This document shows positions 4,783 to 58,300 of a stretch of DNA of 64,000 nucleotides, in pieces; the first letter of the stretch is position 1, and every line of letters starts with the position of its first letter. The notes below the pieces were generated by a model. It was given only the letters and a program-made list of their open reading frames with translations. It ran no database searches and was not told the DNA's origin. The position numbers and the translations under genes were made by a program. This DNA is from an uncultured Bacilli bacterium. Lineage in GTDB: Bacteria; Bacillota_I; Bacilli_A; RF39; UBA660. The DNA is taken from NCBI GenBank assembly GCA_910587775.1, contig CAJUNF010000001.1, forward strand, positions 34,770 through 98,769, in the 5' to 3' direction.

Positions 4783-6537
4783 CTAAATATTTATTTTTTT
4801 CTTTCCTTTTCCTTTTCTTTTTTGTTGTAAATATTCTTCAATTATATTAAAGACTTCTATTTCTTCTCCTTCTACTCTTTTTTCATAAATTACAAATTTA
4901 TCATTTTCTATTATTTTAGCATTTGCAAAAAAATCATTAAAATTTACATATTTAACTGAACCATCTTTATAGCTTACAAGTAATGTTGGAGTGATATCAT
5001 TATCTTCTTTTGGTATTTCAACTTTCCAATAAAATTCATTACTATCATTATCGTATTTTACTTTAAAGATTTTATAGTCTATTATTTGGGGAATTTGATA
5101 CAAATTATCATTTTTTATGAAAATAACATCATTTCTCCCAACTAAAGAATTATATTCTTCATACCCACAAAAAGCAAAATTATTTTGAATTACTTCTTTG
5201 AATTCAGTTAATATTCTTTTTATTGTTTCTTTTTGAAGATCATTTTCATATTCTTTGGTTTCAAAATATTTTAAAATATGATTTATTTCGCAAATACGAT
5301 ATAAGTCAATATCTCTTCTATTTAAGATGTCTAAATATATTTTTAAATATGTTATTATTGCTTGTTCATCATTTTTCTCTATTCCATAAATAATCCATTT
5401 TAAGTTAATGTCTATTGTTTGATAAAAGTTTGAAATTCCATAAATATATTCTTTTTTCTCATTTTCACTTAAATTATTATAATAGTATTCCATCATTGGA
5501 TTTTTATTTTGTAAGTAGCTTATTAGAGTTAAAATCTCACTATTTGAAGATAAAGAACTTTCTAAAAAATCATTTGTGATTCTATTTAAAACATTCGGTA
5601 TATTCTCAGGTAATGTTTTACTAGGTACATTGATTACTGTATTTAATGTATCATTCATTACTTTTATAGGATATTCATCTTTTCCTCTTGATAGAAAAGA
5701 CCCAACCGGAATAAAGTTTACTTCTTTATTTTGGATACAAGAAATAAGTAACTCTTTTTCTAATGGAATTGAATCGTAAGTATCTATAATCTTTTCTGTT
5801 ATATCAAAGTAAACGTAATTATCTAAATTTTTAGTACTATTAAGTGTGCTATTTAGTTTCATTAAATCTAGTAAAAGAATTTTTACTTTGTCAATCGTAA
5901 TACCAGCTTTTTCATGGATTAGGTCGATAAGCTTTTCTTCCTGATTTGTTAGTAATAAATAAATTGTTTCATCTTTTCCAACAATATCACAAATAATTGA
6001 TAAACGAATATTTCCAGTATAATCCTTTTTCTCTGAGGATACTATACTTTGTATACAATCTGAAACTAAGTTGTTTTTTTGAATTATGGTTTCATAGTCT
6101 TGTTCCAATAATTCAAATATTTTACGCATATCCATTAAATTAAGACGATATTTATAATTAGCTACTATATAGCGATAAATCGGTAGGTATTCTTCTTTTT
6201 TATAAATTTTTATATAACTTAATATTTCATCACAAATGATTTGATTTTCTGATTCATTATCTAAGAAACATTCTATTGAGGTTTTTACCATTTGATAGTT
6301 TGAATATCCATTTGTTTTCTTTAATAGACCTACTCCAAGTACTGTTAAAAATAAAGCTGTATATCCAGTTTTTTTGATATCATGCATTATTTCTTTTTTT
6401 AATTGTTCTGCGTAATCTTTTTTCTCTTTTTTACTGGCTTGACCAATTTTCTTCGTTTCTTCATCATAATAGTAAAGTTTTCCATTTTTATTTAGGCGAT
6501 AAACTCTTGTTTTTTTCATATAATCCTCTTTTTTCAA
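4783..6537 (-). CDS. hypothetical protein with a single N-proximal TM helix; no recognisable catalytic motif
   Basis: 584-aa ORF with a Lys-rich N-terminus and one hydrophobic helix (TGYTALFLTVLGVGLL). No Walker A, nuclease or other motif was found. It sits between secA and hpf. Confidence 0.5.
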   Translation of the reverse strand: MKKEDYMKKTRVYRLNKNGKLYYYDEETKKIGQASKKEKKDYAEQLKKEIMHDIKKTGYTALFLTVLGVGLLKKTNGYSNYQMVKTSIECFLDNESENQIICDEILSYIKIYKKEEYLPIYRYIVANYKYRLNLMDMRKIFELLEQDYETIIQKNNLVSDCIQSIVSSEKKDYTGNIRLSIICDIVGKDETIYLLLTNQEEKLIDLIHEKAGITIDKVKILLLDLMKLNSTLNSTKNLDNYVYFDITEKIIDTYDSIPLEKELLISCIQNKEVNFIPVGSFLSRGKDEYPIKVMNDTLNTVINVPSKTLPENIPNVLNRITNDFLESSLSSNSEILTLISYLQNKNPMMEYYYNNLSENEKKEYIYGISNFYQTIDINLKWIIYGIEKNDEQAIITYLKIYLDILNRRDIDLYRICEINHILKYFETKEYENDLQKETIKRILTEFKEVIQNNFAFCGYEEYNSLVGRNDVIFIKNDNLYQIPQIIDYKIFKVKYDNDSNEFYWKVEIPKEDNDITPTLLVSYKDGSVKYVNFNDFFANAKIIENDKFVIYEKRVEGEEIEVFNIIEEYLQQKRKGKGKKKINI

Positions 6538-7722: not shown

Positions 7723-8337
7723 GTGAAGAAAAAATTTATAGAAAACGGATATCATTTTATAGCTCGCTACCAAGAGTGTGATCAAGTAAAAACGATTCGT
7801 ATTAAATATGGATTAGAAGCTTTTTATAATTTACTTACAAAAGCTATATTCTTATTATTTGTTACAATCTGTTGCGGTTTATTAAAAGAATATCTTCTGT
7901 TATGTATTATTTATTCTTTAACTAGAAGATATACTTATGGACTACATGCAAGATCAACTGTTATATGTTGGATTACAACTATTCCAATTTATCTTGGAGG
8001 ATGCTTTTTTATTCGTTTTGCTAGTATTCCAATTCAAGTTATCTTTGTAATTTGGATATGTGCATTTCTTTCTTTTCTGTTGTGGGCTCCAGCGGATACC
8101 CCATCTACTCCACTCATACGTTCTGAAGTTAGAAAAAAGCAGAAAATAAAAGCTTGTCTAACTTGTATTATTTTTTTGATCGTAATGTATTTCATTCCAC
8201 AAAAAATAATTATTAATACAATTTGTTATGCACTTGTAGTACAGTCAATAAGTATAAATCCTATTACTTACTGGCTTACTAATACGCCTTATCAAAATTA
8301 TAAGACGTATTTAAAAAATCATGGTTTAAATGGTTAA
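7723..8337 (+). CDS. agrB: accessory gene regulator B (AgrD-processing membrane peptidase)
   Basis: 204 aa with multiple TM segments. The signature RRYTYGLHARSTVICW aligns with the AgrB catalytic region R-R-x-x-x-G-x-H-A. It is followed directly by a small AgrD-like ORF. GTG start at 7723. Confidence 0.8.
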   Translation: MKKKFIENGYHFIARYQECDQVKTIRIKYGLEAFYNLLTKAIFLLFVTICCGLLKEYLLLCIIYSLTRRYTYGLHARSTVICWITTIPIYLGGCFFIRFASIPIQVIFVIWICAFLSFLLWAPADTPSTPLIRSEVRKKQKIKACLTCIIFLIVMYFIPQKIIINTICYALVVQSISINPITYWLTNTPYQNYKTYLKNHGLNG

Positions 8338-8377
8338 TATATATTTAAACAAAATTCAGTTTAAAGGAGGGAAAATT

Positions 8378-8494
8378 GTGAACATTTTTGCTAATGTACT
8401 TTCTGGAATTGCAGATTTATTTGCTAACGTTCCTACAGTTGCTTGTGCTTTCTTATTTTTTGATGAACCAGTAGCACCTGAAGAAATTTTATAA
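8378..8494 (+). CDS. agrD: autoinducing peptide precursor AgrD (38 aa). It is not in the ORF track.
   Basis: RBS AAAGGAGGG at 8364-8372, then GTG at 8378. The translation is MNIFANVLSGIADLFANVPTVACAFLFFDEPVAPEEIL. It shows an N-terminal amphipathic leader, a single Cys five or six residues upstream of a DEPxxPEE acidic tail (compare staphylococcal DEVEVPKEL), and a TAA stop at 8492. Confidence 0.65.
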   Translation: MNIFANVLSGIADLFANVPTVACAFLFFDEPVAPEEIL

Positions 8495-8500
8495 TTATCA

Positions 8501-8535
8501 AAAAAAGATCAAGGCCATATGATCTTTTTTATTTT
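8501..8535. terminator. bidirectional rho-independent terminator shared by convergent agrBD and agrCA
   Basis: An A6 run, then AAGATC (8505-8510), a loop, then GATCTT (8521-8526), then a T-run. On the minus strand the same hairpin is followed by a U-run and overlaps the agrC stop at 8529. Confidence 0.5.
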
Positions 8536-9788
8536 TTCTCAATACTAATTTCACTACGAAATAAATTATTAATTATTGTATTTTTTATTTTTATTTTCTT
8601 TCTTCCCATTATAGAGAATAGTCCTATACCATGGCCAGAATTTTTACTAGTATAGTGTAATTTTCCTAATTCATCTAGATCTAAAATATTTGAAAATGTA
8701 TTCATAACTTTAATTATATATTTTTCTTCTGTTTCAGATAAAGTAATAGCAATAATTTTATCTTTACTTTGAATAGAAGCTTCTAAGGCATTATCTAATA
8801 TTACACCTAAAGATTCACATAATAAATTGTAACTTCTTGCTGTTAGCATATCTACTACATTGGATTCAATGGTATTTTCAATATTTAAGTTTAATGACTC
8901 ACAATTATGGTTGTATATCTTTTCATAAACTAACCCATTAATACCAAGAGGCATCTTTTGCATTCCTTGTACACCTTGGAAACTTTTATTATATTCTTTA
9001 ATTAAATCATCAATTAATTCACATGATTTTTTATTTGAAACACTTTTTATTCCAATTAATTGATTAACAATATTATGTCGCATTATTTTATAATCGTTTA
9101 CAATATTTAAATAAAACTCGTTATTTTTAATCAGGTATTGATTCATTTCTTTTAATGTATAAATATTATATTCATTTACTACATAGAATATAAATAAAAT
9201 TAATACAACGATTAAAATCAAAAATATCATAAAATTATAAGATACTTTATCTAAATTTAAACTACACATAGTTCCACAAAAAATGATAATTCCTAGTAAA
9301 AGAACTGTTTTAGTATAAAATTGATTATTAGTTAAAATTTCATACAATTTTTGAAACATTTTTATAATCTTTTTTTGTGACATTAATAGATATAGGAATG
9401 TTTGATAACTCAGTGTAGATATAGCTTTAAAATAATTTATTGGGATAGTATTTGCTAAATGTTCTATTTTAATTAGTCCCATAATAATCATAATGGTAAA
9501 ATCAAATGCTATTGCTACACACCAAATAAATAACGTTTTATAAATTGCTTCGCCATATTTGACTTTAAAAAGATGTTTAAATAAAATAATAAAATATACA
9601 ATAGATAAGATTACAGTTAATGGTTGAGTCAATATTTTCTCACTATAAATTAATATTCCTGCTATTAAAGTATAGAAAATTAACATACTCAATTTCCATT
9701 CAACTTTTTTGGAAACTAATTTCCCAAAAATAATTGTGTATACGATTTGAGTAATGAAGCTTGAGAATAAATATAAGAGATCTGCCAT
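8529..9788 (-). CDS. agrC: AgrC-like membrane sensor histidine kinase (GHKL/HATPase_c_5 type)
   Basis: 419 aa with about six N-terminal TM helices. The H-box IMRHNIVNQL resembles the AgrC RHDY region. The C-terminal ATPase region carries GHGIGL. It is translationally coupled to the upstream LytTR regulator, with the stop and start sharing position 9788. Confidence 0.75.
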   Translation of the reverse strand: MADLLYLFSSFITQIVYTIIFGKLVSKKVEWKLSMLIFYTLIAGILIYSEKILTQPLTVILSIVYFIILFKHLFKVKYGEAIYKTLFIWCVAIAFDFTIMIIMGLIKIEHLANTIPINYFKAISTLSYQTFLYLLMSQKKIIKMFQKLYEILTNNQFYTKTVLLLGIIIFCGTMCSLNLDKVSYNFMIFLILIVVLILFIFYVVNEYNIYTLKEMNQYLIKNNEFYLNIVNDYKIMRHNIVNQLIGIKSVSNKKSCELIDDLIKEYNKSFQGVQGMQKMPLGINGLVYEKIYNHNCESLNLNIENTIESNVVDMLTARSYNLLCESLGVILDNALEASIQSKDKIIAITLSETEEKYIIKVMNTFSNILDLDELGKLHYTSKNSGHGIGLFSIMGRKKIKIKNTIINNLFRSEISIEKK

Positions 9789-10504
9789 TACTTCTCAACC
9801 TCCTTTTTATATTTCTTAGAAAGATATTCTACTTTTTCTCCATTGTCTAATATAAAATAATTTTTAGGCCAATTCCATTCATGAACTCTTTGTCTATTTG
9901 TTATACAACTTCTATGTGTTTGAATAAACCTTTCATCTAGTAATGTCATAACATCATTTAAATTCATATTTAACTTAAAAATATTGCTATCAGTATGAAT
10001 CAGTACTTTTCTCTCTTCTTTATCTCTTGATATATAAGTTATAGCACGATAATAGATTTGTAAATCAATATTACGATTAGAAACGCAAAACATTTTATTA
10101 TCAAAGTTCTTTTTAAAAATCAGTTCAATATCTTTTTCTAATCTTCTTTCCATATTGTAAAATTTTTCTATAAAATTAAATACTTGATAAACACTGCGAT
10201 AGACTGTTTCAAACATCTTATCATGAGAAGTAATAAATATTATTTCACTTTCCCAATCTTTTTCACGAATCATTTTTGCTATTTCTATCCCACTAGTTTT
10301 GGTTTCTAATTCTATATCCATAATATACACTTTTCTACAAGAATTGTCATCAATTATTTTCTTTAAATCTTTTGAGTACTTTGTAAAATATTTCACATTT
10401 ATGGTGTTATTTTTACTAATTACGACTCTTCTTAAAACATCTTTTATTGTTTCTTGTGTCTTTGGATCATCTTCTACCACAACAAAACTTATCAAACTCC
10501 TCAT
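9788..10504 (-). CDS. agrA: AgrA-like response regulator with a LytTR DNA-binding domain
   Basis: The receiver domain FVVVEDDPKTQETIKDVL parallels AgrA IFICEDDPKQREN. The C-terminal LytTR domain reads (...ITYISRDKEERKVLIHTDSNIFKL...FIQTHRSCITN...). The start is ambiguous: TTG at 10570, ATG at 10558, or ATG at 10504, which is chosen by alignment to AgrA N-termini. Confidence 0.7.
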   Translation of the reverse strand: MRSLISFVVVEDDPKTQETIKDVLRRVVISKNNTINVKYFTKYSKDLKKIIDDNSCRKVYIMDIELETKTSGIEIAKMIREKDWESEIIFITSHDKMFETVYRSVYQVFNFIEKFYNMERRLEKDIELIFKKNFDNKMFCVSNRNIDLQIYYRAITYISRDKEERKVLIHTDSNIFKLNMNLNDVMTLLDERFIQTHRSCITNRQRVHEWNWPKNYFILDNGEKVEYLSKKYKKEVEK

Positions 10505-10574
10505 CCTTTCTTTTTGTTTACTAATTGCAATTATATCATAAAAATTAAGATAATCCATAAAAAAACACAATTTA

Positions 10575-11186
10575 TTAGAAATTGTGTCGAAGAAACATTT
10601 TTATTAAGTATTGATCATAGTCTTCGTAATACAAGACTCTTTTTTTTACCATTATTTCAATTTTTTGTGATATATATGGGATAGTTTTTATAGATCCAAT
10701 ACATATTATCTTTTTTATTTTAGGATATTTTTCTATTATTCTTTGAATATTTTCTTCAATAGAATATTCATTTTCTTTCTGCCATAAAATTGTTTTCTTA
10801 TTTTTTTCATTTAAGAAAGTAATGTAAGCATAATTATCAAATATATTCACCCATATTGTATTTTTCTTACCCTGATATAAATTCACTTCTTTGAAAAATC
10901 TAACTTCACTTACCAAAAAATCTTCTAATGTAATTTGTATAATCTCTTTATCAATTTCTTCAAATGTTGGAGGAGTTAAAAAATATATTATATTTCGATA
11001 AAATTTTTTTAATATTTTTTCTTTTTTAAAAAATTTGTTTAACTCATTTTGAAATTTTGGTCGATGAATAACTTTTCCAAATTTTATTATTTTCGAATCT
11101 ATTTTCCAAGAAAAATATTTAGCTTCTTTTTTTTGATAACAAATGATTTCTTTATCAGTTAGATACATAATGAGTTCGTTTTTCAC
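10575..11186 (-). CDS. hypothetical protein, 4 nt upstream of agrA in the same orientation
   Basis: 203-aa Lys/Ile-rich ORF. No motif was recognised. Confidence 0.4.
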   Translation of the reverse strand: MKNELIMYLTDKEIICYQKKEAKYFSWKIDSKIIKFGKVIHRPKFQNELNKFFKKEKILKKFYRNIIYFLTPPTFEEIDKEIIQITLEDFLVSEVRFFKEVNLYQGKKNTIWVNIFDNYAYITFLNEKNKKTILWQKENEYSIEENIQRIIEKYPKIKKIICIGSIKTIPYISQKIEIMVKKRVLYYEDYDQYLIKMFLRHNF

Positions 11187-11209: not shown

Positions 11210-11860
11210 TTATTTATTTAAATCTTCTAAATTCATTTCAAAGAAATCGATTGGATTTACTAAGGTACCATTGATATAAACTTCAAATAGTAAGCAATTT
11301 TGTTTTTCATTCTCTAAAGAATTTGATCCACTTAAACCAATAATATCATTTGTTTTTACATTCATTCCTTTGGTTACTTTAACTTCACTTAAACTATAAT
11401 AGATTACTGTTACGTTCGTATTATATTCTATTGTTACAACAGAACCTAGTATTTCATCATCTTTAATCTCTTTTACTACACCATCAACACTTGCTAGTAC
11501 TTCAAATTGTTCATCACTACTATATAAAACTCCTGTATTTTGCATGTATGTATTTTGATAGTATATTAAAGATTTTTGTTGAAGTTCTTCTGTATCCTCT
11601 TGTTTATAGAATGATTTACTAATAGTTACGCCATCCTTCGTAAATGGAATAATAGGTTTTTCTGGGGTAGGACTAATAACTGTTATGTCACTATTTTCTT
11701 TATTATCTACATTAACTGTAACAGAATGATTGTTATCATCTACCTGTGGTGCTTTAAAATTTAAACTATTATTTAAAAAATATACTGTTAGAAATACACA
11801 AAAAACTACTAATCCATAAATACTTGGTAATACAAACTTTTTTAACTTTCTTCTTTTCAT
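11210..11860 (-). CDS. SpoIIQ-like membrane protein with a degenerate (non-catalytic) LytM/M23 domain
   Basis: An N-terminal TM helix, then an M23 fold. The HxxxD site reads IEYN (His replaced by Tyr). The HxH motif reads LLFEV in place of HLHFE. The domain ends with the typical INGTLVNP. It lies directly downstream of spoIID, as in Clostridia. Confidence 0.55.
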   Translation of the reverse strand: MKRRKLKKFVLPSIYGLVVFCVFLTVYFLNNSLNFKAPQVDDNNHSVTVNVDNKENSDITVISPTPEKPIIPFTKDGVTISKSFYKQEDTEELQQKSLIYYQNTYMQNTGVLYSSDEQFEVLASVDGVVKEIKDDEILGSVVTIEYNTNVTVIYYSLSEVKVTKGMNVKTNDIIGLSGSNSLENEKQNCLLFEVYINGTLVNPIDFFEMNLEDLNK

Positions 11861-11911
11861 GATCTCACCTTTCCTATTCCTAGTTTGACCATGAATACCA
11901 ATTTTATACAG

Positions 11912-12853
11912 TTATATTTTTGAAAATTCTATATTTTGATAATAATGTGTTAAAATTTCATGATATGTTTTTCCTTCTTTGGCCATACCATTTGCTCCAT
12001 ATTGACTCATTCCTACTCCATGACCATTTCCTCTTGTAGTTATTTTTACGTTTTCCATTAATTCAATGTCAAAATCAGTAGAACGTAAGGATAACTTTTT
12101 TCTTACTTCTGTTCCTTTTAATAATTTATCATTTATTTTTATTGTATTTATACGACCTGAGCTGGTACGATTTATATCACTTATAGAAATTTCTTCACAA
12201 GAAATGTTTAGTAATTCACAAAACTCTTCTTTTGAAAATTCTTTTGTTACTTGATAGTTATTTAAAGTTTCATTATCCCAACTAGAATCAACAGAACTTA
12301 AATATGGTAAAGATTCCTGAAAGACTAATTCACAATTTTCTGTTTGACCATTACTCATAGAAAAATAAAATGATTCAATTACTTTTCCTTCATAAGTCAT
12401 GACTAATCCTCTAGTATCATTTACGGCATTTTTAACTTTTTCATAATTTTCTTGATAAGCATTTTCCCATTTTTTTTGCATTTGTTCTATAGTATTATAT
12501 GCTTGATCGGCAACTCCTATTATGACATCATAATCTAAGTTTTGATGTTCCATTTTATAACTTGCAAATGTTCTTGCTGCAATTGCTTGAGCTTTTAGCG
12601 CTTCTATTTCGAAAGAAGCAGGCATTTCTGCTGCTACAACTCCCAAGATATAATCTTCTAGTGGCATGTTAGTGATTTTAGTGGTAGATGGGTCATACAC
12701 ACGAATTGTAGAATCTATATATTCTTCTTTTGGCTTTTCTTGATCATTTTTTGGAAGATCAAAAGAAAAGTTAGTTTTATTTTTTAAACTAACTTCTATC
12801 ATTAAAATTATGCTTAATACTATTATCACTACAATAAGAATTTTATTTTTCAT
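11912..12853 (-). CDS. spoIID: stage II sporulation protein D / SpoIID-LytB family lytic transglycosylase
   Basis: YILGVVAAEMPASFEIEALKAQAIAARTFA matches the SpoIID signature (E-x-P-x-S-x-x-x-EALKAQAVAAR-TYA). There is an N-terminal TM helix. Confidence 0.8.
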   Translation of the reverse strand: MKNKILIVVIIVLSIILMIEVSLKNKTNFSFDLPKNDQEKPKEEYIDSTIRVYDPSTTKITNMPLEDYILGVVAAEMPASFEIEALKAQAIAARTFASYKMEHQNLDYDVIIGVADQAYNTIEQMQKKWENAYQENYEKVKNAVNDTRGLVMTYEGKVIESFYFSMSNGQTENCELVFQESLPYLSSVDSSWDNETLNNYQVTKEFSKEEFCELLNISCEEISISDINRTSSGRINTIKINDKLLKGTEVRKKLSLRSTDFDIELMENVKITTRGNGHGVGMSQYGANGMAKEGKTYHEILTHYYQNIEFSKI

Positions 12854-14967: not shown

Positions 14968-15477
14968 TTATTTTATATGTAATATATGCTTTATTTTTCC
15001 AGCAAAAAAAACTAAACTATCACTCTTTTTCATAGCGATTTGTTTACCAACTGCCTTTCCCCCAACTGTTAATGCTGAAATTAATGAAGTTACTAATACT
15101 GTGATCCATATCGCATTTGCATTTAATTTTAACGTAATATAAGCTGTTAACACTGCTCCCAGAGATCCACTTACAATTCCACAAATATCTCCTATTACAT
15201 CATTACAAACACTTGAAACAACATTTCCATTTCTTAATAAAGAAATAGATTCTTTTGCACCAGGTATTTTTTTGGCAGACATGGCATGAAATGTCGCTTC
15301 TTTACTTGTTAGTGCTGCAACTCCTATCATATCGAATAGAATTCCTATTAAAATAACTATAATCATAATCATTAATAGTATAAAAACATTCATATCACTA
15401 CAAAAGCTAGTTAAAGCACTAAAAATTGCTGCTAAGAAAAAAGATAAGAAAAAAACCTTTAATGGCCAAAATTTCAT
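14968..15477 (-). CDS. oapA: small four-TM membrane protein with a DxxxD motif; candidate OLE-associated protein A (OapA)
   Basis: 169 aa with about four hydrophobic helices. The motif NDVIGDICG (D-x-x-x-D) lies in a membrane segment. The RBS AAAAGGAG is 7 nt upstream. It is immediately downstream of a ~530-nt structured, higher-GC noncoding region that has its own promoter. Confidence 0.5.
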   Translation of the reverse strand: MKFWPLKVFFLSFFLAAIFSALTSFCSDMNVFILLMIMIIVILIGILFDMIGVAALTSKEATFHAMSAKKIPGAKESISLLRNGNVVSSVCNDVIGDICGIVSGSLGAVLTAYITLKLNANAIWITVLVTSLISALTVGGKAVGKQIAMKKSDSLVFFAGKIKHILHIK

Positions 15478-18702: not shown

Positions 18703-19212
18703 TCATGATAAATATTTATCTAAAACGTTCTTTACAAAAAACTGGTATTCTACATTATCTAAATCTGTTTCTTCTGCTTCTAAAAGACATAGAGGCGGAA
18801 ACATTACACACCACCAATTTTCTCCTAATCCACTTCCTAAAGTAATAACTAATGATTCATATTTTCCTGCATCATATGTAATTCCTTTATATTCTTTTTC
18901 AGGAAATTCATTCATTCCATAATTCATTTCAAAATCTACATGATAATTATTTACGACATTTTGAATTAACGGAAGAGAATCTTGAATTAATTTTTCTGCT
19001 TCTTCTTTTGAATTTGCGGTAGCCATTAAACGATTTAATTCTTTTTCTACTTCTTTTTTTATTTCCATTTTTAAAGATTGATCTTCTATTGAATTACTAT
19101 TTGCAATCACCCGAAATCTAATAGAGTCATCTGGAATTAAAATTTGGCTTTGTTTATTTGTTACACAAATAACTACTGTTATAAAAAATAATATTAATAT
19201 AATCTTTTTCAT
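18703..19212 (-). CDS. spoIIR: stage II sporulation protein R
   Basis: IRFRVIANSNSIEDQSLK...GENWWCVMFPPLC matches the SpoIIR signature IRLHVIANSD...NWWCVLFPPLC. The start is set at ATG 19212, which has an AGGTGA RBS. Confidence 0.8.
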   Translation of the reverse strand: MKKIILILFFITVVICVTNKQSQILIPDDSIRFRVIANSNSIEDQSLKMEIKKEVEKELNRLMATANSKEEAEKLIQDSLPLIQNVVNNYHVDFEMNYGMNEFPEKEYKGITYDAGKYESLVITLGSGLGENWWCVMFPPLCLLEAEETDLDNVEYQFFVKNVLDKYLS

Positions 19213-19244
19213 GATTTCACCTAAATTAATCATGAATAGTCTTT

Positions 19245-33340: not shown

Positions 33341-33446
33341 TTATACACAAATTCACATTGATGTTTATAAGATTACACATTATCAACGTTGATAATTATT
33401 CTATGTTGATAATTTCTAAAATCAAAGTTGTGGATAATGTTGATAA
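33341..33446. promoter_or_regulatory. oriC DnaA-box cluster upstream of dnaA
   Basis: One perfect TGTGGATAA at 33429-33437. One-mismatch boxes are TTATACACA (33341), TGTTGATAA (33404) and TGTTGATAA (33438). Weaker matches are TTATCAACG (33380) and GTTGATAAT (33388). Confidence 0.6.
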
Positions 33447-33582
33447 CTATATTTTTATCTGTTAGAATATGAAACCAAGACTGTTTATAAATTGTTAATT
33501 ATGTGTGAATTGTTCTTTCGTACTTGTTTTTAAAATCACAACTGAGTTAAAATGAAGTTGATAAAACGTGAGGGATTGTGGG

Positions 33583-34971
33583 GTGAAGTGGTTGAAAACA
33601 GAAACCGAAACATTATGGCAAAATTTCTTAGATCTTATTTATAAAGAAATCAACGCAGCTTCATTCCATGCGTGGTTTCACGATTTACTTTTACTTAGTA
33701 TAGATCGTTATCAACATAGTATTAAAATTCAGGTACCAATGGAAATTCATCGTAGAATTCTTGGTGAAAACTACTATTCACTCATTGAAGAAACTTTTTT
33801 AAAACTAACTGGTATTACTTTTGATATTGAATTTTTATTAGAAGAAGAAAAAGAAACAATTGTGGATAACTTTCAAAAAGAAATTATTTCTGATGAAAAT
33901 ATTCCTAATGTTATTGCAAAAGATTGGGAATCTAACTTAATTCCAGAACTTAATTTTGATAATTATGTAGTTGGAGATTCTAATCGACTCGCTAAAGTTG
34001 CTGGTATGGCTGTTGCTGAAGCACCTGGCAAAATACATAATCCTTTGTTTATTTACGGAAAAAGTGGACTTGGTAAAACTCATTTAATGCATGCTATTGG
34101 TAATTATATTGTTGAGCATTCTAATAAAAAAGTATTGTATACAACTAGTGATATGTTTATGAATGATTATACTGGAATTGCGAACTTAGAAAATAAAAAT
34201 AATACCGTTGAATACGCGAATAATTTTAAAAATAAATATCGTAATGTTGATGTTTTAATTATTGATGATATTCAATATTTAGTTGGGGCAGAGAAAACAC
34301 AACAAGAATTCTTTCATACATTTAATGCCTTACAACAAGCAAATAAACAGATTATTATAAGTTCTGACCGATCGCCAGATGATTTAAAATTATTAGAAGA
34401 ACGTCTTCGAAGCAGGTTTATGTGGGGATTGCCTGTGGATATCTATCCTCCAGATTTTGAACTTCGTTGTAAAATTATAAAGCAAAAAGTCAAAAATACC
34501 AGTATTGCTAATAAACTTGATGAAACTGTTGTTGAATTTATCGCAAATAGTTGCCAAAATGATGTAAGGTTTTTGGAAGGAACTATAAATCGTTTAATGG
34601 CTTATACTGCTATGGTCGTTCCTGATCATATTGATCTAGAATTTGCTAATGAAGCTTTAAAGGACTTTATTAATAAAAATATTTATTCAGAAAATAGTAT
34701 TGAGGGGATTCAGAATGCAGTAGCAGAGTATTATAATATTACGATTGCTGATCTTAAAGGAAAGAAAAAGAGTGCTAATATTGCTTATCCAAGGCAAATA
34801 GGAATGTATCTTTGTAGAATGCTAACTGATGAAACTTTTCCTAGAATTGGCTTAGAATTTGGTGGAAGAGACCATTCTACTGTAATTCATGCTTGTGATA
34901 AAATTGAAAAGGATTTAAAAACGAATCCGACACTATCAAATACATTAAAAGAAATTAAAAATAAAATATGA
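33583..34971 (+). CDS. dnaA: chromosomal replication initiator protein DnaA
   Basis: The AAA+ Walker A is GKSGLGKTHL. The C-terminal domain IV is ...IGLEFGGRDHSTV. Start candidates are GTG 33568 (longest), GTG 33583 (GAGGGA RBS) and TTG 33592. Confidence 0.95.
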   Translation: MKWLKTETETLWQNFLDLIYKEINAASFHAWFHDLLLLSIDRYQHSIKIQVPMEIHRRILGENYYSLIEETFLKLTGITFDIEFLLEEEKETIVDNFQKEIISDENIPNVIAKDWESNLIPELNFDNYVVGDSNRLAKVAGMAVAEAPGKIHNPLFIYGKSGLGKTHLMHAIGNYIVEHSNKKVLYTTSDMFMNDYTGIANLENKNNTVEYANNFKNKYRNVDVLIIDDIQYLVGAEKTQQEFFHTFNALQQANKQIIISSDRSPDDLKLLEERLRSRFMWGLPVDIYPPDFELRCKIIKQKVKNTSIANKLDETVVEFIANSCQNDVRFLEGTINRLMAYTAMVVPDHIDLEFANEALKDFINKNIYSENSIEGIQNAVAEYYNITIADLKGKKKSANIAYPRQIGMYLCRMLTDETFPRIGLEFGGRDHSTVIHACDKIEKDLKTNPTLSNTLKEIKNKI

Positions 34972-34972
34972 T

Positions 34973-35100
34973 TGTGGATAAATATTTAAAAACTGGATAG
35001 GAATTCACATCAGAATTTTAAAATCTGCTTAGGAAATATCAATGATTTGAAACCTATGCACATTATAAACTGTATTATTATAATTAATATTAAATTAATA
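34973..35100. promoter_or_regulatory. dnaA-dnaN intergenic oriC half: a perfect DnaA box plus an AT-rich candidate unwinding element
   Basis: TGTGGATAA at 34973-34981 lies 1 nt after the dnaA stop. A near-pure A/T run at about 35065-35100 precedes dnaN. Confidence 0.45.
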
Positions 35101-35120: not shown

Positions 35121-36239
35121 ATGAAATTTTCAATTGATAAAAATATAATATTAGAAAACTTAAGTAATGTAATAAAAGGGGTATCTACAAAAAATGTGAT
35201 TCCAGTATTAAATGGAATTAAATTTGAATTACGTAGTGAAGGTTTGTATTTAACTGCAAGTGATTCTGAATTAGTCATTCAATCTTTTATTGAACGGAAA
35301 TTAATTAAAAATGTAGAAACTGAAGGAGTTATTATAATTGGTAGTAAATATATTTTAGAAATTTTACGAAAGATGCCAAGTGATGTTATTAACTTTGAAG
35401 TTATCGACAGTTTAAAAATAAAAATTTATTCTGATTTTAATCAATATAATTTAAATTGTTTAGATCCTAGTGAATATCCTAATTTAAGATTAGAAGAACA
35501 CAAAGATCCAATTGTATTACAAGGAGATTTATTTAAAACAATTATTAATCAAACAAGTTTTGCTATTTCAACACAAGAACTTCGTCCGCTTTTAACAGGT
35601 GTTAATATTAAAATAACTGGGGATCTTTTAGAATGTATCGCAACAGATTCTTATCGACTTGCAAAGAAGAACATTAAACTTGATACGCCAGTCTTAACAG
35701 ATATTAACATTGTAATTCCAGGAAAAAATATTATAGAATTAGAGAAAATTATTGTTGATAACGAAAACATAGAAATGCATATCTTTAATAATAAAGTTTT
35801 ATTTAAATATAAAAATATTATATTTCAAACTAATTTATTATCAGGAACTTATCCGAATACTTCTAATTTAATTCCTACTGAATTTGAAATTATCGTTCAA
35901 ACTAAAAAAGAAGAATTTGCATCTGCCGTTGATCGTGCTGCTTTGTTAACACAAGGGAAAGATAAAAATATCATAAAAATGCGCATTGAGAATAAAGAGA
36001 TGGTTATTAATTCTTATGCATCTGAAATAGGTAAGACAGAGGAACGTTTGATTGTTGAAACAAGTGAAAATTCAAATATTGATATTTCTTTTAGTGCAAA
36101 ATACATGTTAGAAGCTTTAAAAACTTTAAAAGATGAGGATATTTTAATTTTACTTAACAATGATGTTAAGCCAATAGTTATGAAATCATTGAAAGATGAG
36201 TCATTAATTCAGTTAATTTTACCAATTAAAACATATTAA
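35121..36239 (+). CDS. dnaN: DNA polymerase III beta sliding clamp
   Basis: 372-aa protein with a three-domain beta-clamp layout. It is in the conserved position after dnaA. Confidence 0.95.
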   Translation: MKFSIDKNIILENLSNVIKGVSTKNVIPVLNGIKFELRSEGLYLTASDSELVIQSFIERKLIKNVETEGVIIIGSKYILEILRKMPSDVINFEVIDSLKIKIYSDFNQYNLNCLDPSEYPNLRLEEHKDPIVLQGDLFKTIINQTSFAISTQELRPLLTGVNIKITGDLLECIATDSYRLAKKNIKLDTPVLTDINIVIPGKNIIELEKIIVDNENIEMHIFNNKVLFKYKNIIFQTNLLSGTYPNTSNLIPTEFEIIVQTKKEEFASAVDRAALLTQGKDKNIIKMRIENKEMVINSYASEIGKTEERLIVETSENSNIDISFSAKYMLEALKTLKDEDILILLNNDVKPIVMKSLKDESLIQLILPIKTY

Positions 36240-36324
36240 GACATGAAAATGTCTTTTTTTTGACATTTTTTTCATAAGTTCTGTATTAATATAAGGCCAA
36301 TTTTCCAAGTCAGGGGGTGAATTA

Positions 36325-36783
36325 ATGGAAAATTATGAGATTAATACAGAAACACTTGCTTTAATTTCTTTAAAAAATAAAACAGAGGTATTTGAAGAAA
36401 ATGATCATTTTTTTATTGATAAAGTAGCAAATGAAATTATGGAATCAAGTTGTGAGTATTTTGGAAGTTCATTATCAGGAAGACAGAAGGGAACTGAGCG
36501 GTTAATTGGGGTAAGTTATAAAGCTCCAGTTATAGTGGAAGAGACAGAAGAAATGATTTTTTTTCCGACTGAATCTCCTAGAAATGACAGTTGTTCTTGG
36601 ATTTCACTTCAAAAGATTAATAAATATTTTCGATGTGGAGAAAAGATGGTTATTGAATTTAAGAATGGAAGTAAAGTAGTTTTAGATTTATCATATGGAA
36701 AGCTAGATAATCAAGTTTTACGTGCAACTCGATTGGAGTCTGTTTTAAGAGGGCGAAAAAGCAATAAAAATAGTTTTAAATAA
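36325..36783 (+). CDS. comK: ComK-family protein (competence transcription factor fold)
   Basis: CEYFGSSLSGRQKGT aligns with B. subtilis ComK CRFFGSSYAGRKAGT. KAPVIVEETEEMIFFPTESPRNDSCSWIS aligns with KPPIMVDPSNQIFLFPTLSSTRPQCGWIS. FKNGSKVVLDLSYGKLDNQVLRATRL aligns with FSNGKTMELPISYNSFENQVYRTAWL. Confidence 0.7.
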   Translation: MENYEINTETLALISLKNKTEVFEENDHFFIDKVANEIMESSCEYFGSSLSGRQKGTERLIGVSYKAPVIVEETEEMIFFPTESPRNDSCSWISLQKINKYFRCGEKMVIEFKNGSKVVLDLSYGKLDNQVLRATRLESVLRGRKSNKNSFK

Positions 36784-36868
36784 GCTATTCGTGTGATATA
36801 ATGTTGATAGGTATAGAGGTACATATATACCTATTATTTTTGTATATGGCTTAAAAAGAGGCAAAATT

Positions 36869-39884
<3,016 letters not shown>

Positions 39885-39894
39885 GAGGTAGAGT

Positions 39895-42360
39895 ATGGAT
39901 AGAATAATTGAAAATAATATTGTTAATGAAGTAAAAGATTCTTTTTTAGATTATGCTATGAGTGTTATTACAGCTCGTGCTTTACCAGATTTGCGTGATG
40001 GATTAAAACCTGTTCATCGTCGTATTTTGTATTCGATGTATGAATCTAGTTATACTCCTGATAAACCTCATCGTAAAAGTGCAAGAATTGTTGGAGATGT
40101 AATGGGAAAATATCATCCTCATGGAGATTCTTCTATTTATGATGCAATGGTTCGTATGGCACAACCTTTTAGTTTCCGTCATATGCTTGTAGATGGACAT
40201 GGTAATTTTGGTAATATGGATGGCGATGGTGCCGCTGCAATGCGTTATACAGAGGCAAGACTGTCAAAGTTATCTCTTGAGATGATAAGAGATATTAATA
40301 AAGAAACAGTAAATTTTAGTCCGAATTTTGATGAAACAGAGAAAGAACCTGAAATTTTGCCTAGTAGATTCCCTAATATTTTAGTAAATGGAACTATGGG
40401 AATTGCAGTTGGAATGGCTACTAATATACCTCCACACAACTTGGGTGAAGTAATTGATGGTTGTGTAGCTTATATTGATAATCATGAAATAACAACTGAT
40501 GAATTAATGCAATTTATTAAAGGTCCAGATTTTCCGACTGGAGCGACTATTTTAGGTAATAGTGGTATTAAAAAAGCTTATGAAACAGGTCGTGGATCAA
40601 TCACAATTCGTGGAAAAGTTGAAATTGAGGAAAATAATGGCAGATCTCGTATTATTGTTACAGAATTGCCATATCAAGTGAATAAAGCTGAATTTCAGTC
40701 ACGTATTGGAGAACTTGTTAGAGATAAAATTATTGATGGTATTAGCGAATTACACGAGGAATCTAATCTAGAAAATCCAGTGCGAGTTGTTATTTATTTA
40801 AAAAGAGATGCAAATGCAAATGTTGTTTTGAATAATTTGTATAAGCATACACAGTTACAAACAACTTTTGGTATTAATTTCTTGATGTTAGATCAGCAAT
40901 CTCCTAAAATTTTACCATTAAAAGATATTATTTCTAAATACATTGATTATCAAAAAGAGATAATTATTCGAAGAACACAATATGATTTGAGAAAAGCACA
41001 AGAACGTGTACACATTTTAGAAGGCTTAAAGATTGCTTTAGATCATTTAGATGAAGTAATTAAGATAATTAGAGAATCTAAAACAGATGTGATCGCAAAA
41101 GAACAATTAATGCAACGTTTTGGTTTAGATGATATTCAAGCTAATGCTATTCTTGAAATGAAATTGCGTCGTTTAACTGGATTAGAACGAGAAAAGATAG
41201 AAAATGAGCTATCGGAATTATTAAAGACTATAGAAGAATTACAAGCAATATTAGCAAGTGAAGAGAAAGTTTTAGCTATAATAAAAACTGAACTTTTAGA
41301 AATAAAAAATAAATATGCTGATGAGCGACGTACAAATATAGATATGACTGCAATTGAATATATTGAGGATGAATCTTTAATTCCAGTAGAAAATATAATG
41401 ATTGCTTTGACAAATAAGGGTTATATTAAACGTACTACTGTAGACACCTTTAAATCTCAAAATAGAGGTGGAGTTGGTGTTAAAGGTATGGGTACAAACG
41501 AAGAAGATTTTGTAGATCATTTAATCAACTTATCCACACACGATTACGCTTTATTTTTTACAAATAAAGGTAAAGTATATAGATTAAAAGGATATGAGAT
41601 TCCTGAATTTAACCGTCAATCAAAAGGATTACCAATTATTAATTTGTTACAAATTGAAAAAGATGAGATGATTAATAGCGTAATAAGTATTGGCAATGAA
41701 CACGATTATAAATATTTATTATTTGTAACTAAAAATGGAATTGTTAAGAAGACTGCTATTAATGAGTTTGATAATATTCGAACATCTGGTAAAATATGCA
41801 TTAATTTAAGAGATAATGATGAGTTAATAGCAGTGAAAAAAACTACAGGAAATAATTTGATATTATTGGGCTCTAGTGCTGGTAGAATGGTTAAATTTGA
41901 TGAAAATGAGCTTAGAGTAATGGGAAGAACAGCAACAGGTGTACGAGGTATTAATTTAACTGAAGCATTCTGTGTAGGTGCAGAAATTGCAACTGATGAA
42001 GATAAAGTATTAATAGTAACTGAAAAAGGATACGGAAAACAAACGAATGTTTGCGAATATAGAGGCACTAAACGAGGAAGTAAAGGAGTAAAAGCTTTAA
42101 ATGTAACTGAAAAGAATGGTAATATATCAGCATTTAAAGTAGTTAGAGAAAATCAAGATGTAATAATCATTACTGATACAGGTATGTTAATTAGAATGCC
42201 TTTAGATCAAGTTTCAACTTTAGGTCGTGTTACCCAAGGTATTCGTTTGATTCATTTGAAAGATAATCAAAAAGTATCAACTATAAGCTTGGTGGATCAT
42301 GAAGAAAAAACAACTTGTGAAGATTCATCTATACCAGAAAACTTTTTAGAAGAAGAATAA
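39895..42360 (+). CDS. gyrA: DNA gyrase subunit A
   Basis: An active-site Tyr region ([10 protein letters not shown]), a QRDR and C-terminal beta-pinwheel repeats. 821 aa. Confidence 0.95.
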
Positions 42361-42690: not shown

Positions 42691-42719
42691 TTGATAAATA
42701 AATCTTTATTTGCTAAAAT
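42691..42719 (+). promoter_or_regulatory. sigma-A promoter for the SRP RNA
   Basis: TTGATA (42691-96), a 17-nt spacer, then TAAAAT (42714-19). The TSS is predicted at about 42726. Confidence 0.5.
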
Positions 42720-42723
42720 GTAC

Positions 42724-42803
42724 TTGTGCAACAAATATATTGCAAACTGGTCAGGATCGGAAGATAGCAGCCAATGTAATCCCTGTTTGTGTGCACTTTT
42801 TTT
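42724..42803 (+). ncRNA. ffs: signal recognition particle RNA, short 4.5S-like form
   Basis: GGUCAGGAUCGGAAGAUAGCAGCC matches the universally conserved domain IV motif GUCAGGUCCGGAAGGAAGCAGC. This comprises a GGAA tetraloop and CAGG/AGCAG loops. The 5' end (GUGCAACAAA) pairs with the 3' end (UUUGUGUGCAC) to close a single hairpin, followed by a U7 terminator tract. It lies in the tadA-dnaX neighbourhood, where ffs sits in Bacillus. Confidence 0.6.
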
Positions 42804-42817
42804 ATTGAGGTGTAACT

Positions 42818-45891: not shown

Positions 45892-46080
45892 ATGATAAAA
45901 CTAATAATAAATATATTAAAAAGAATAGTAATCAGCTTTTTTATACTTTATGGATTTAATTTATTAGTAAATTCTATTCAGATTTTTATTCCTATTAATG
46001 TTGTAACAATCGGAACTGTAACATGTCTAGGTTTTGCTGGTTTATTATCTTTAGTGGCTCTATTTTTTTTAGTTAAATAA
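45892..46080 (+). CDS. bofA: BofA-like small membrane protein (pro-sigma-K processing inhibitor family)
   Basis: Two TM helices. IFIPINVVTIG resembles BofA IHVPINLVT. It is in the position that bofA occupies after recR in Bacillus. Confidence 0.5.
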   Translation: MIKLIINILKRIVISFFILYGFNLLVNSIQIFIPINVVTIGTVTCLGFAGLLSLVALFFLVK

Positions 46081-52265: not shown

Positions 52266-52793
52266 TTGAAGTCAACGGGTGTTATTAGAAGGATTGATGA
52301 ATTAGGAAGGATTGTAATTCCAAAAGAGATAAGAAGACATTTAGGTATTCGAGAAGGAGAAAATTTAGAAATTTTTACAGAAGAAAATCAGATAGTTTTA
52401 AAAAAGTATTCTAAAATGCTAGAATATGGAGATTTTTCCTCTAAGTTATGTGAAATTGTACCAGCTACAATGGATCTAGCTTTAGTAGTTACTGATCGTG
52501 ATAAAGTTGTTTCTTTTTCTTCAAACATTGTATTAGAAATTGGTAATAGTGAGATTAACAGCCATTTGTTATCTTATATCCAATCAAGAGAATCTTATGA
52601 ATCAAATAATTTTGAAAAGATAGAAATAGGCGATCATGAAATTGAAGGTTATTTTTATATTCAGCCAATTATTTCATCTATTGATTGTTTGGGATTAATT
52701 ATTTTAATAAAAGATCAGTCATTTTTAAAAGAAGAAAAACAATTTGCAAAGTTTCTAGCGCAAATGATTGCAAATAAAATTGACATTTCTTAA
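52266..52793 (+). CDS. spoVT: stage V sporulation protein T (AbrB-type swapped-hairpin N-domain plus GAF domain)
   Basis: (M)KSTGVIRRIDELGRIVIPKEIRRHLGIREGENLEIF aligns closely with B. subtilis SpoVT. The 175-aa length fits SpoVT rather than AbrB. TTG start with a GGAGTG RBS. Confidence 0.8.
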   Translation: MKSTGVIRRIDELGRIVIPKEIRRHLGIREGENLEIFTEENQIVLKKYSKMLEYGDFSSKLCEIVPATMDLALVVTDRDKVVSFSSNIVLEIGNSEINSHLLSYIQSRESYESNNFEKIEIGDHEIEGYFYIQPIISSIDCLGLIILIKDQSFLKEEKQFAKFLAQMIANKIDIS

Positions 52794-56318: not shown

Positions 56319-56343
56319 GATTTTATGATTTGAGGTGAACATT

Positions 56344-56886
56344 TTGGGATCTATAGGTCATAAAATTTCTCAAATGCTTCGTGTTGCTACTATTGTAGGT
56401 GTAATTTTCGTCGCTAAATCAAGTACTAATTTAGTAGAGACCAAATTAGAAAATAATGCTACAAATCGAGTTATAGATTTGTCAACTATGGCTTTGAAAT
56501 TAGAGGAAGATATAAAAAACGATTTATATAGTGCTAAAGATACTTATACTGGAGATTTAACTGGTTATGGTGCAGATTGTCCACTTTGTGGAGGAACTCT
56601 TGCTTGCAAACCAAGTTATTATATTAAAGATGGTACAGATACTTATCCTGATTCAGTATATGGAACGGTTCGAATTGTAGCTTCTAGTCGCAATTTACCA
56701 TGTGGTACAATTGTTAGATTTCATCATGCAAGAATTTCTAGTGATCCAATTATTGCAATTGTATTAGATCGTGGAGTTTTAGGAAATGATTTAGATTTAT
56801 TGTCACCAAGTGAGGAATATGCACTTCAAAATGTTGGTAGAAAATCTATTACATATGATATTTTAAGACAAGGTTGGGGATCCTAA
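56344..56886 (+). CDS. membrane-anchored 3D-domain protein (YabE/MltA-like C-terminal domain)
   Basis: An N-terminal TM helix, then GYGADCPLCGG...TVRIVASSRNLPCGTIV with the conserved Asp residues of the 3D domain. It is in the YabE position between tatD and ksgA. Start is TTG 56344, or alternatively GTG 56335. Confidence 0.6.
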   Translation: MGSIGHKISQMLRVATIVGVIFVAKSSTNLVETKLENNATNRVIDLSTMALKLEEDIKNDLYSAKDTYTGDLTGYGADCPLCGGTLACKPSYYIKDGTDTYPDSVYGTVRIVASSRNLPCGTIVRFHHARISSDPIIAIVLDRGVLGNDLDLLSPSEEYALQNVGRKSITYDILRQGWGS

Positions 56887-57718: not shown

Positions 57719-57800
57719 TTATAGTTAAGTGAATATTTTTTAGATTATCTTAATGGTAATCTTTTTTTTCTTTTGGCATAAATTGATAGTGGTGAAGTCT

Positions 57801-58100
57801 ATGGAAGTTAAAAAGGGTGATTATGTTACTCGTAATAGTTATCAGAATGATACTATTTTTAAAGTTATTAATATTAAGGGTGATATTTGTTATTTAAAGG
57901 GTGTAGATGTTAGATTGTATGCTGATAGTGTTTTGGATGATTTAGTACTTACTAAAAAACCAGATAAAGTAGAAGATGTTATAAGTGAGGTACAGATTGA
58001 TGAAGAGAATATGATGCGTGGAGATTTTTTTTATTTACCTGGCAAAGTTTTACATATTGATGGAGACTATCACTTAAGTAACTATATAAAATCTTTGTAA
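57801..58100 (+). CDS. yabG: YabG N-terminal-domain-only protein (truncated homologue of sporulation protease YabG)
   Basis: GDYVTRNSYQNDTIFKVINI...VRLYADSVLDDLVL...FFYLPGKVLHIDGDYHL aligns with B. subtilis YabG GDMVARKSYQMDVLFRIIGI...VRLIADSDFSDLV...HMPGKVLHLDGD. The ORF stops after about 99 aa. Full YabG is about 290 aa with a C-terminal protease domain. It is in the conserved position after ksgA. Confidence 0.5.
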   Translation: MEVKKGDYVTRNSYQNDTIFKVINIKGDICYLKGVDVRLYADSVLDDLVLTKKPDKVEDVISEVQIDEENMMRGDFFYLPGKVLHIDGDYHLSNYIKSL

Positions 58101-58268: not shown

Positions 58269-58300
58269 ATACCATTAAAAAGAATGGGTGGTTTTGAGTT

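Follow-up and report, generated by a model that had tools for sequence, protein, structure and literature searches.

The subject of this report is a short gene that lies between dnaN and recF, near the replication origin, in a 64-kb stretch of DNA (27% G+C) from an uncultured Bacilli bacterium, referred to throughout as the window. The open reading frame (ORF; 36325-36783, forward strand, stop codon included) begins with ATG and encodes a protein of 152 amino acids (aa) belonging to the ComK family. That the gene encodes a functional DNA-binding protein of the ComK family, and that its residence in the dnaN-recF slot is ancient, we regard as very nearly certain. The fuller reading that we favour, in which the product is an origin-linked short ComK transcription factor controlled by Spo0A, is probable, with considerable room for doubt. 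The term competence regulator, which has also been applied to this gene, follows from family membership and is to be read as putative.

Against Pfam, the protein matches the ComK model (PF06338) with an E-value of 4.9e-40 and a score of 137 bits, where the cut-off is 22.3, and the match covers profile positions 1-150 of 152. Neither the S4 domain nor LytTR (PF04397) is found among its Pfam matches, even at E<=10, and NCBIfam has no model that fits the protein. A preliminary description of this DNA had placed the gene in the ComK family rather than with the S4-like YaaA, and this profile search bears the assignment out. The same description had written yaaA (rqcP) for the gene expected here, and in so doing had merged two different S4 proteins, since RqcP is the former YabO and not YaaA (PMC8012679). 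Its block-by-block alignment with ComK holds in full, as every block that it quoted aligns in a BLASTP comparison of the window protein with the 192-aa protein P0121 (31% identity, E 2e-25, residues 1-144 against 9-157). P0121 is a ComK of the B. subtilis group and shares 97% identity with the ComK query by which it was found. The aligned blocks pair SCEYFGSSLSGRQKGT of the window protein with SCRFFGSSYAGRKAGT of P0121, SCSWIS with QCGWIS, FKNGSKVVL with FSNGKTMEL, and NQVLRATRL with NQVYRTAWL, and the core motifs FGSSxxGRxxGT, KxPIxV, FPTxS, CxWIS and NQVxR are common to both proteins. The window contains a single ComK-like sequence and each related genome locus a single copy, so that the word paralogue, as previously applied to this gene, finds no support.

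The position of the gene is an ancient and clade-wide arrangement in low-GC, uncultured, host-associated Bacilli. When one genome per GTDB species was scanned, 286 relatives came to light, and the best 80 loci were analysed for synteny by tblastn with the window proteins. The block dnaA-dnaN-comK-recF-gyrB-gyrA is present in all 80, and the order dnaN-comK-recF is kept in each of the 76 loci in which all three genes are in range. Across these loci the identity of DnaA drops to 47% and that of ComK to about 53%. The 80 loci come from uncultured metagenome-assembled genomes (MAGs) of the gut or rumen (mouse, rabbit, goat, chicken, human), which their submitters labelled as Bacilli, Tenericutes, Erysipelotrichaceae or Ca. 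Ventrenecus, with about 10 labelled as Muribaculaceae. A metagenome scan for the recF-promoter motif described below adds 66 loci, out of 120, with comK upstream and recF downstream.

The arrangement also extends to more divergent short forms. A profile search of 1.84 billion cluster representatives returned 1487 ComK-family clusters at E<=1e-3, and most of the best 150 of these are 145-157 aa long. Genomic context was examined for eight divergent short representatives, whose identity to the clade is 34-46%. Seven have informative flanks, and in each of these dnaN lies upstream and/or recF-gyrB downstream; the eighth, P0306, is on a contig of 921 nt with neither neighbour in view. In one locus, L089, ComK is 29% identical to that of the window while DnaA and DnaN are 60% and 62% identical, which argues that the slot is old and the protein fast-evolving. 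Short length is equally constant: all 76 homologues of the clade have 146-165 aa, and among 387 relatives in the protein database the best 120 span 138-176 aa, nearly all close to 150. A few of these already carry the NCBI name "competence protein ComK [Bacilli bacterium]". The two long ComKs that were checked (196 and 202 aa) are encoded mid-chromosome, beside genes for an IDEAL-domain protein and YhjD, surroundings that we take to be the Bacillus comK neighbourhood. In a rough neighbour-joining tree, forms of at least 175 aa, Bacillus ComKs included, mostly cluster at one end.

These observations dispose of the earlier suggestion that the gene had been inserted into, and so unusually disrupts, a core syntenic block, and they refute a recent insertion, a pseudogene or a chance ORF, to which we attach next to no probability. 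Such a view reflects the impression given by a single window, and it can point to unrelated inserts that some relatives carry in the two comK-flanking spacers. Synteny of comK is nevertheless maintained across all the divergence described above, with ComK identity as low as about 25-30%, 76 of 76 genome loci, seven of seven divergent representatives and 66 metagenome loci agreeing in gene order. The gene is under purifying selection, with a dN/dS of 0.10-0.16 against its closest relatives (dS is about 1.1, near saturation), its promoter and Shine-Dalgarno sequence are conserved, and the identical protein is present on 19-22 contigs. As to the inserts, three close relatives (L003, L004 and L005) carry in the dnaN-comK spacer a 162-aa gene of the cytidine/dCMP-deaminase family, for which the best NCBIfam model is ComEB at 44.5 bits, far below the cut-off of 219. 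Membrane-protein or unidentified ORFs occupy comK-flanking spacers in L041, L048, L053, L071, L076 and L050. No S4 gene is found among the inserts in the enlarged spacers, and a tblastn search of low sensitivity gave no YaaA- or YabO-like sequence, either in the window or in the 80 loci. In the literature searched we found no description of a ComK in the dnaN-recF slot or of a short origin-linked ComK subfamily, and nothing relevant on ComK in Erysipelotrich*.

The gene order around the ORF is yidC and rnpA on the reverse strand, followed on the forward strand by dnaA, dnaN, the ORF, recF, gyrB and gyrA. The individual features are as follows.

33341..33446, no strand assigned: DnaA-box cluster on the oriC side, upstream of dnaA; TTATCCACA with at most one mismatch at 33341, 33404, 33429 (exact) and 33438
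33568..34971, forward: dnaA, an ORF; the identical gene on Logan contigs has Bac_DnaA Pfam domains
34973..34981, reverse: exact DnaA box in the dnaA-dnaN spacer
35121..36239, forward: dnaN, an ORF; DNA_pol3_beta domains on identical contigs
36240..36261, forward: terminator-like hairpin of dnaN, GACAT-GAAA-ATGTC then T8, read from the sequence
36259..36265, forward: TTTGACA at the site of the clade's conserved TTCGACA box (one mismatch); perfect -35 TTGACA at 36260-36265
36284..36292, forward: comK -10 region, either TATTAA 18 nt past TTGACA or TAATAT at the 21-nt spacing of the relatives, from an alignment of 77 upstream regions
36298..36320, forward: comK leader with conserved CAATTTTCC and strong Shine-Dalgarno sequence AGGGGGTGA (36312-36320), from the upstream alignment
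36325..36783, forward: the short ComK-family gene (152 aa), its product predicted to have a LytTR-like beta fold with a long helix at the C terminus
36794..36802, forward: recF-gyrB-gyrA promoter with extended -10 TGaTATAAT, kept in nearly all related loci
36805..36841, forward: hairpin TGATAGGTATA-GAGGTACATA-TATACCTATTA plus T5, likely comK terminator, overlapping the recF transcript start; minimum free energy -11.0 kcal/mol
36869..37969, forward: recF, an ORF; SMC_N and AAA_23 domains on identical contigs
37962..42360, forward: gyrB (37962-39884) and gyrA (39895-42360), ORFs with Pfam domains on identical contigs

The sign of the GC skew reverses somewhere between about 28 and 36 kb, and comK lies roughly 1.3-3 kb from the DnaA-box clusters and the skew switch. 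The proposal that a ComK gene occupies the dnaN-recF slot close to the origin thus stands, the distance to oriC being less than 3 kb.

Alignment of the 77 upstream regions reveals four conserved blocks amid divergent AT-rich DNA: TTCGACA, an extended -10 element TGnTAnnnT, CAATTTT, and the Shine-Dalgarno sequence. The hairpin and T-run at the 3' end of dnaN recur at the same position in related loci with different stem sequences, and comK is itself followed by a hairpin with an 11-bp stem (36805-36836) and five T residues. Because the gene has its own conserved promoter and ribosome-binding site and is bounded on both sides by terminator-like hairpins, it is a monocistronic unit outside the dnaN and recF transcripts. 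Judged from spacing, the downstream hairpin probably terminates comK transcripts, and transcription of recF would start inside its 5' arm. A simple promoter and terminator scan was uninformative at 27% GC (42 promoter-like sites against 35.5 expected), and Rfam gives no match in the comK flanks even at E<=10.

The first of the conserved blocks is the reverse complement of the Spo0A-binding 0A box, whose core, TGTCGAA, is kept between Bacillus and Clostridioides (PMC3485338, PMC2731898). Perfect 0A boxes within 100 bp of a start codon predict Spo0A binding (PMC3485338), tandem 0A boxes 3 bp apart have been described (PMC2731898), and in B. subtilis the phosphorylated regulator, Spo0A~P, binds the comK promoter (PcomK) directly (PMC3297582). 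Within 110 nt upstream of comK an exact TTCGACA is found in 56 of 76 genome loci, on a single strand and mostly at -64 to -70. Its density there, 6.9 per kb, is 53-fold that in the rest of the loci (0.13 per kb), and matches to TTCGACA or TGTCGAA elsewhere in related loci are mostly codon coincidences inside dnaA. Metagenome loci behave similarly: of 67 independent ones, with ComK 25-68% identical to that of the window, 48 have an exact box, and there are 72 boxes in total, often about 10 bp apart. Most relatives have one to three copies per comK promoter; tandem copies at 10-13 bp occur in L085, L076, L078, L080 and L068, and L095 has three 7-mers (TTCGACA, TGTGACA and TTCGACA) set 3 bp apart by ATA and TAT. 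Between the box and the best -10 element the spacer is 21 nt in 37 of the 56 loci, and a TG precedes the -10 in 31 of them. Such a spacer is too long for a normal -35 element and resembles instead that of Spo0A-activated sigma-A promoters such as spoIIG. The spoIIG promoter itself has a spacer of 22 bp. On this evidence the balance leans modestly towards the conserved box of the comK promoter being a putative Spo0A site.

The window itself departs from this pattern. At the position of the box its comK promoter has TTTGACA (36259-36265), which contains a perfect TTGACA 18 nt upstream of TATTAA, while the closest relatives (L001 and L003-L008) keep TTCGACA; the species of the window may therefore have shifted towards Spo0A-independent expression. 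In keeping with the one-mismatch box at comK, comK expression in this species may be less dependent on Spo0A. The window as a whole contains two exact TTCGACA sequences against 4.3 expected, and the degenerate motif TYGACAWW shows no enrichment in it.

A further group of TTCGACA sequences was observed outside the comK promoter. In about 10 relatives (L041, L045, L047, L049, L051, L053, L066, L070, L072 and L075) an exact copy stands 7-8 nt past a DnaA box in the dnaA-dnaN spacer, an arrangement that is absent from the window itself and that recalls the Spo0A boxes overlapping DnaA boxes in the oriC of B. subtilis (PMC5295017).

A search of PDB sequences found no ComK relative with a solved structure. 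The fold was modelled with AlphaFold2 from a 23-sequence alignment (mean predicted local distance difference test score, pLDDT, 77.6; predicted template modelling score, pTM, 0.77). The core of the model is rich in beta structure and there is a long helix at the C terminus (residues 124-150); the predicted fold is a LytTR-like beta fold. The region of residues 49-56 and 61-64, which takes in the invariant G52-R53-x-K55-G56-T57, is modelled with low confidence. The protein would bind DNA in the manner of LytTR domains through this beta fold, a likely point of contact being the invariant GRxKGT loop, and the long C-terminal helix would mediate multimerisation. LytTR domains such as those of AgrA, ComE and 3d6w share the fold alone with the window protein: sequence identity is 10-13%, there is no Pfam LytTR match, and a receiver domain is lacking.

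The window ComK ends about eight residues past the aligned core, which in P0121 reaches residue 157 of 192, and a C-terminal tail of some 35 residues is absent. It is indeed shorter than B. subtilis ComK (152 against 192 aa) and without its C-terminal extension, as had been noted. Removal of the last 25 residues from B. subtilis ComK leaves DNA binding intact and abolishes activation of comGA, and B. cereus ComK2, which is 22 C-terminal residues short, lowers comG expression (PMC3128618). The tail-less protein of the window probably stands outside the MecA/ClpCP-ComS circuit, and it may activate differently or repress. The tail of B. subtilis ComK holds the MecA-targeting signal FMLYPK, and if this is where the signal resides, a short form would escape control by MecA/ClpCP-ComS.

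In the reading that we favour, Spo0A~P would switch on or gate comK on entry into stationary phase or sporulation, after the model of the spoIIG/spoIIE-type sigma-A promoters and of Spo0A~P at B. subtilis PcomK. The short ComK, binding DNA through its LytTR-like beta fold and multimerising through the long helix, would then control a stationary-phase programme, most likely including genes that serve DNA uptake and recombination. As to DNA-uptake genes in particular, our confidence stops a little short of even. A Spo0A-type pathway is plausible in this organism because the window contains genes for SpoIIR, SpoIID, BofA and SpoVT.

Several observations weigh against this reading. The box TTCGACA is one base off the sigma-A -35 consensus, so promoter function could explain part of its conservation; the window's own copy, TTTGACA, is mismatched at a base contacted by Spo0A (G5); and the related loci share ancestry, so that box counts are not counts of independent events. 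The gene for Spo0A itself is not among the genes of the 64-kb window. K-boxes (A4N5T4 twice, with spacers of 8 and 18 bp and at most two mismatches) number six for each spacer in the window, against 5.6 and 5.7 expected, which is chance level. None lies at the comK promoter; at 27% GC the K-box search has little power. No comG, comE, comF or comC gene was recognised among the window ORFs, by eye or with Pfam and NCBIfam, in a survey that included no dedicated search; some ORFs were scanned against Pfam or NCBIfam and others were assigned by eye from their first residues only.

The absent tail lends itself to another interpretation, in which the short ComK binds DNA but represses, or regulates non-competence genes such as those associated with stationary phase or sporulation, rather as ComK2 acts in B. 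cereus. We consider this unlikely, though worth keeping in view. It accords with the behaviour of tail-deleted B. subtilis ComK, which binds without activating, and of ComK2, which lowers comG (PMC3128618); with the rapid evolution of ComK, 29% identical where DnaA is 60%; and with the want of any recognised late competence gene among the window ORFs, for which, as stated, no dedicated search was made. Yet short forms of 145-157 aa dominate the best 150 of the 1487 ComK clusters, and the Pfam ComK core spans the whole protein. Moreover, with one ComK copy per locus, these genomes probably have no ComK other than the short form, which would then not be modulating a long one. The likeness to ComK2 is by description only: ComK2 is a paralogue that coexists with full-length ComK1 and has not been reported in the dnaN-recF slot, whereas the short ComK described here is single in each locus and clade-wide.

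Two further interpretations turn on location. By analogy with other systems, the copy number of an oriC-proximal comK might rise under fast growth or replication stress and so, as the preliminary description suggested, couple the ComK regulon to replication status. The DnaA-box clusters and the skew minimum are indeed 1.3-3 kb away from the gene, its position is frozen across a wide clade, and there is precedent for origin-proximal competence control and for hard-wired location effects: in pneumococcus the competence master switch comCDE stands next to the origin and its dosage responds to replication stress (PMC8394987, PMC5034851). That system is nevertheless of an unrelated family (a two-component system plus peptide) with position alone in common, and the dosage effect, demonstrated for comCDE, is an analogy here. 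Position by itself proves little, since in Firmicutes synteny extends to the entire dnaA-gyrA block regardless of what its genes do. YaaA, for example, is an S4-domain protein with no known connection to replication. Switching would also need positive autoregulation, and the comK promoter showed no ComK-type boxes; the conserved cis element points instead to a classical transcription-factor input, with which dosage effects are compatible. A dosage sensor is, in our estimate, rather improbable. Still less credible is a regulator of its neighbours, binding near oriC or the recF-gyrBA promoter to tune gyrase and RecF expression, or initiation, when Spo0A is active. In its favour are the tight linkage of comK to a very conserved recF promoter/leader element, the TTCGACA that adjoins a DnaA box in about 10 relatives, and the 0A boxes that affect copy number at the B. 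subtilis oriC (PMC5295017). Its case, however, rests on position, no repeated ComK-type site was detected, and the recF motif also stands upstream of recF-gyrB where no ComK gene precedes it (L106). Comparably doubtful is a protein that is not primarily a competence switch at all: a Spo0A-induced DNA-binding protein whose oriC-side position is functional, and which would either read replication status through gene dosage or act on the origin or recF-gyrBA, tuning initiation or the state of the chromosome as cells enter stationary phase or sporulation. Such action would be loosely analogous to that of SirA in Bacillus, a protein that, to our knowledge, is not expected outside that genus.

The recF element mentioned above (36794-36841 in the window) deserves description in its own right. 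Across loci L001-L096 and the 66 metagenome loci it consists of TGnTATAAT, 5-8 nt, and then GTATAGGAGTAC, which is usually part of a hairpin with a T-run after it. The hairpin contains the clade-wide core GTATAG(G/A)(A/G)GTAC, and in 71 unique sequences G113, T117 and A118 of the loop do not vary. The element is present a single time in the window and has no Rfam match. It was also considered as a ComK site. In L106 the element precedes recF-gyrB and the upstream gene encodes a membrane protein instead of ComK, so the motif is to be assigned to recF rather than ComK, and a ComK site was rejected as the main explanation; the other matches away from recF look like chance. It may represent a terminator that overlaps a promoter, or an undescribed leader of the recF and gyrase genes.

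Set beside B. subtilis ComK, the window protein thus belongs to the same Pfam family, at 31% identity and with all core motifs aligned, and a link to Spo0A may be common to both, PcomK being bound by Spo0A~P in the one (PMC3297582) and a 0A-type box standing in the promoters of most relatives in the other. The two differ in that the window form is about 40 residues shorter and without the tail needed for comGA activation (PMC3128618), and sits in the dnaN-recF slot rather than the IDEAL/YhjD-flanked locus of the long forms; K-box counts in the window are at chance level. B. cereus ComK2 likewise is naturally short, without the C-terminal region (PMC3128618). YaaA, which has an S4 domain and fills the dnaN-recF slot in B. 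subtilis, shares only that slot with the window ComK, which is without an S4 domain.

Other features of the window were recorded in passing. An SRP RNA (42715-42811, forward) lies directly upstream of a tadA-dnaX-ybaB-recR-bofA block, an order that closely mirrors the origin-proximal region of B. subtilis. No tRNA genes are found in the 64 kb. An OLE RNA (RF01071; 15538-16041, reverse) is matched over the whole model in 504 nt, with 241.6 bits and an E-value of 5e-67. Directly downstream of it is a gene for a 169-aa membrane protein (14968-15477, reverse) with a weak Pfam CNNM match only; its position is, we assume, that expected for oapA. An agr-like quorum-sensing cassette (7723-10570) comprises, on the forward strand, AgrB (7723-8337) and an overlapping AgrD-like ORF of 54 aa (8330-8494); its GHKL histidine kinase (8529-9788) and LytTR response regulator (9788-10570) are encoded on the opposite strand. 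Sporulation genes in this 27% GC "Tenericutes-like" MAG lineage encode SpoIID with an adjoining M23 peptidase, SpoIIR, BofA and a SpoVT-like protein assigned by eye, with coordinates 11210-12853, 18703-19233, 45892-46080, 52266-52793 and 57753-58100. A YabG ORF of 115 aa matches the first 67 of 280 profile positions and may be a pseudogene. An ORF of at least 1901 aa (58298-64000, forward) runs off the end of the window; with its N-terminal signal or transmembrane segment and low-complexity stretches rich in N, D and S, it is probably a giant surface protein. Three ORFs have no Pfam or NCBIfam match: 4783-6537 (reverse, 584 aa), which lies between hpf and secA, 10575-11186 (reverse, 203 aa) and 56335-56886 (forward, 183 aa).

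ComK has been studied almost solely in Bacillus, Staphylococcus and Listeria, and it is the tail-less form of about 150 residues that makes up most of the best matches in the family search. In a broad group of uncultured gut Bacilli such a form has a fixed place beside oriC, in a gene block that is among the most conserved of the Firmicutes, and for annotation it follows that the dnaN-recF slot should not be presumed to hold yaaA. The Spo0A-type box provides a concrete and testable regulatory input, and it suggests that the Spo0A-to-ComK link of B. subtilis is old and is more direct in these lineages. If position matters, there would be two independent cases in which a master regulator of competence is hard-wired to the origin, and if these bacteria are naturally transformable, the finding would bear on gene flow in gut communities.

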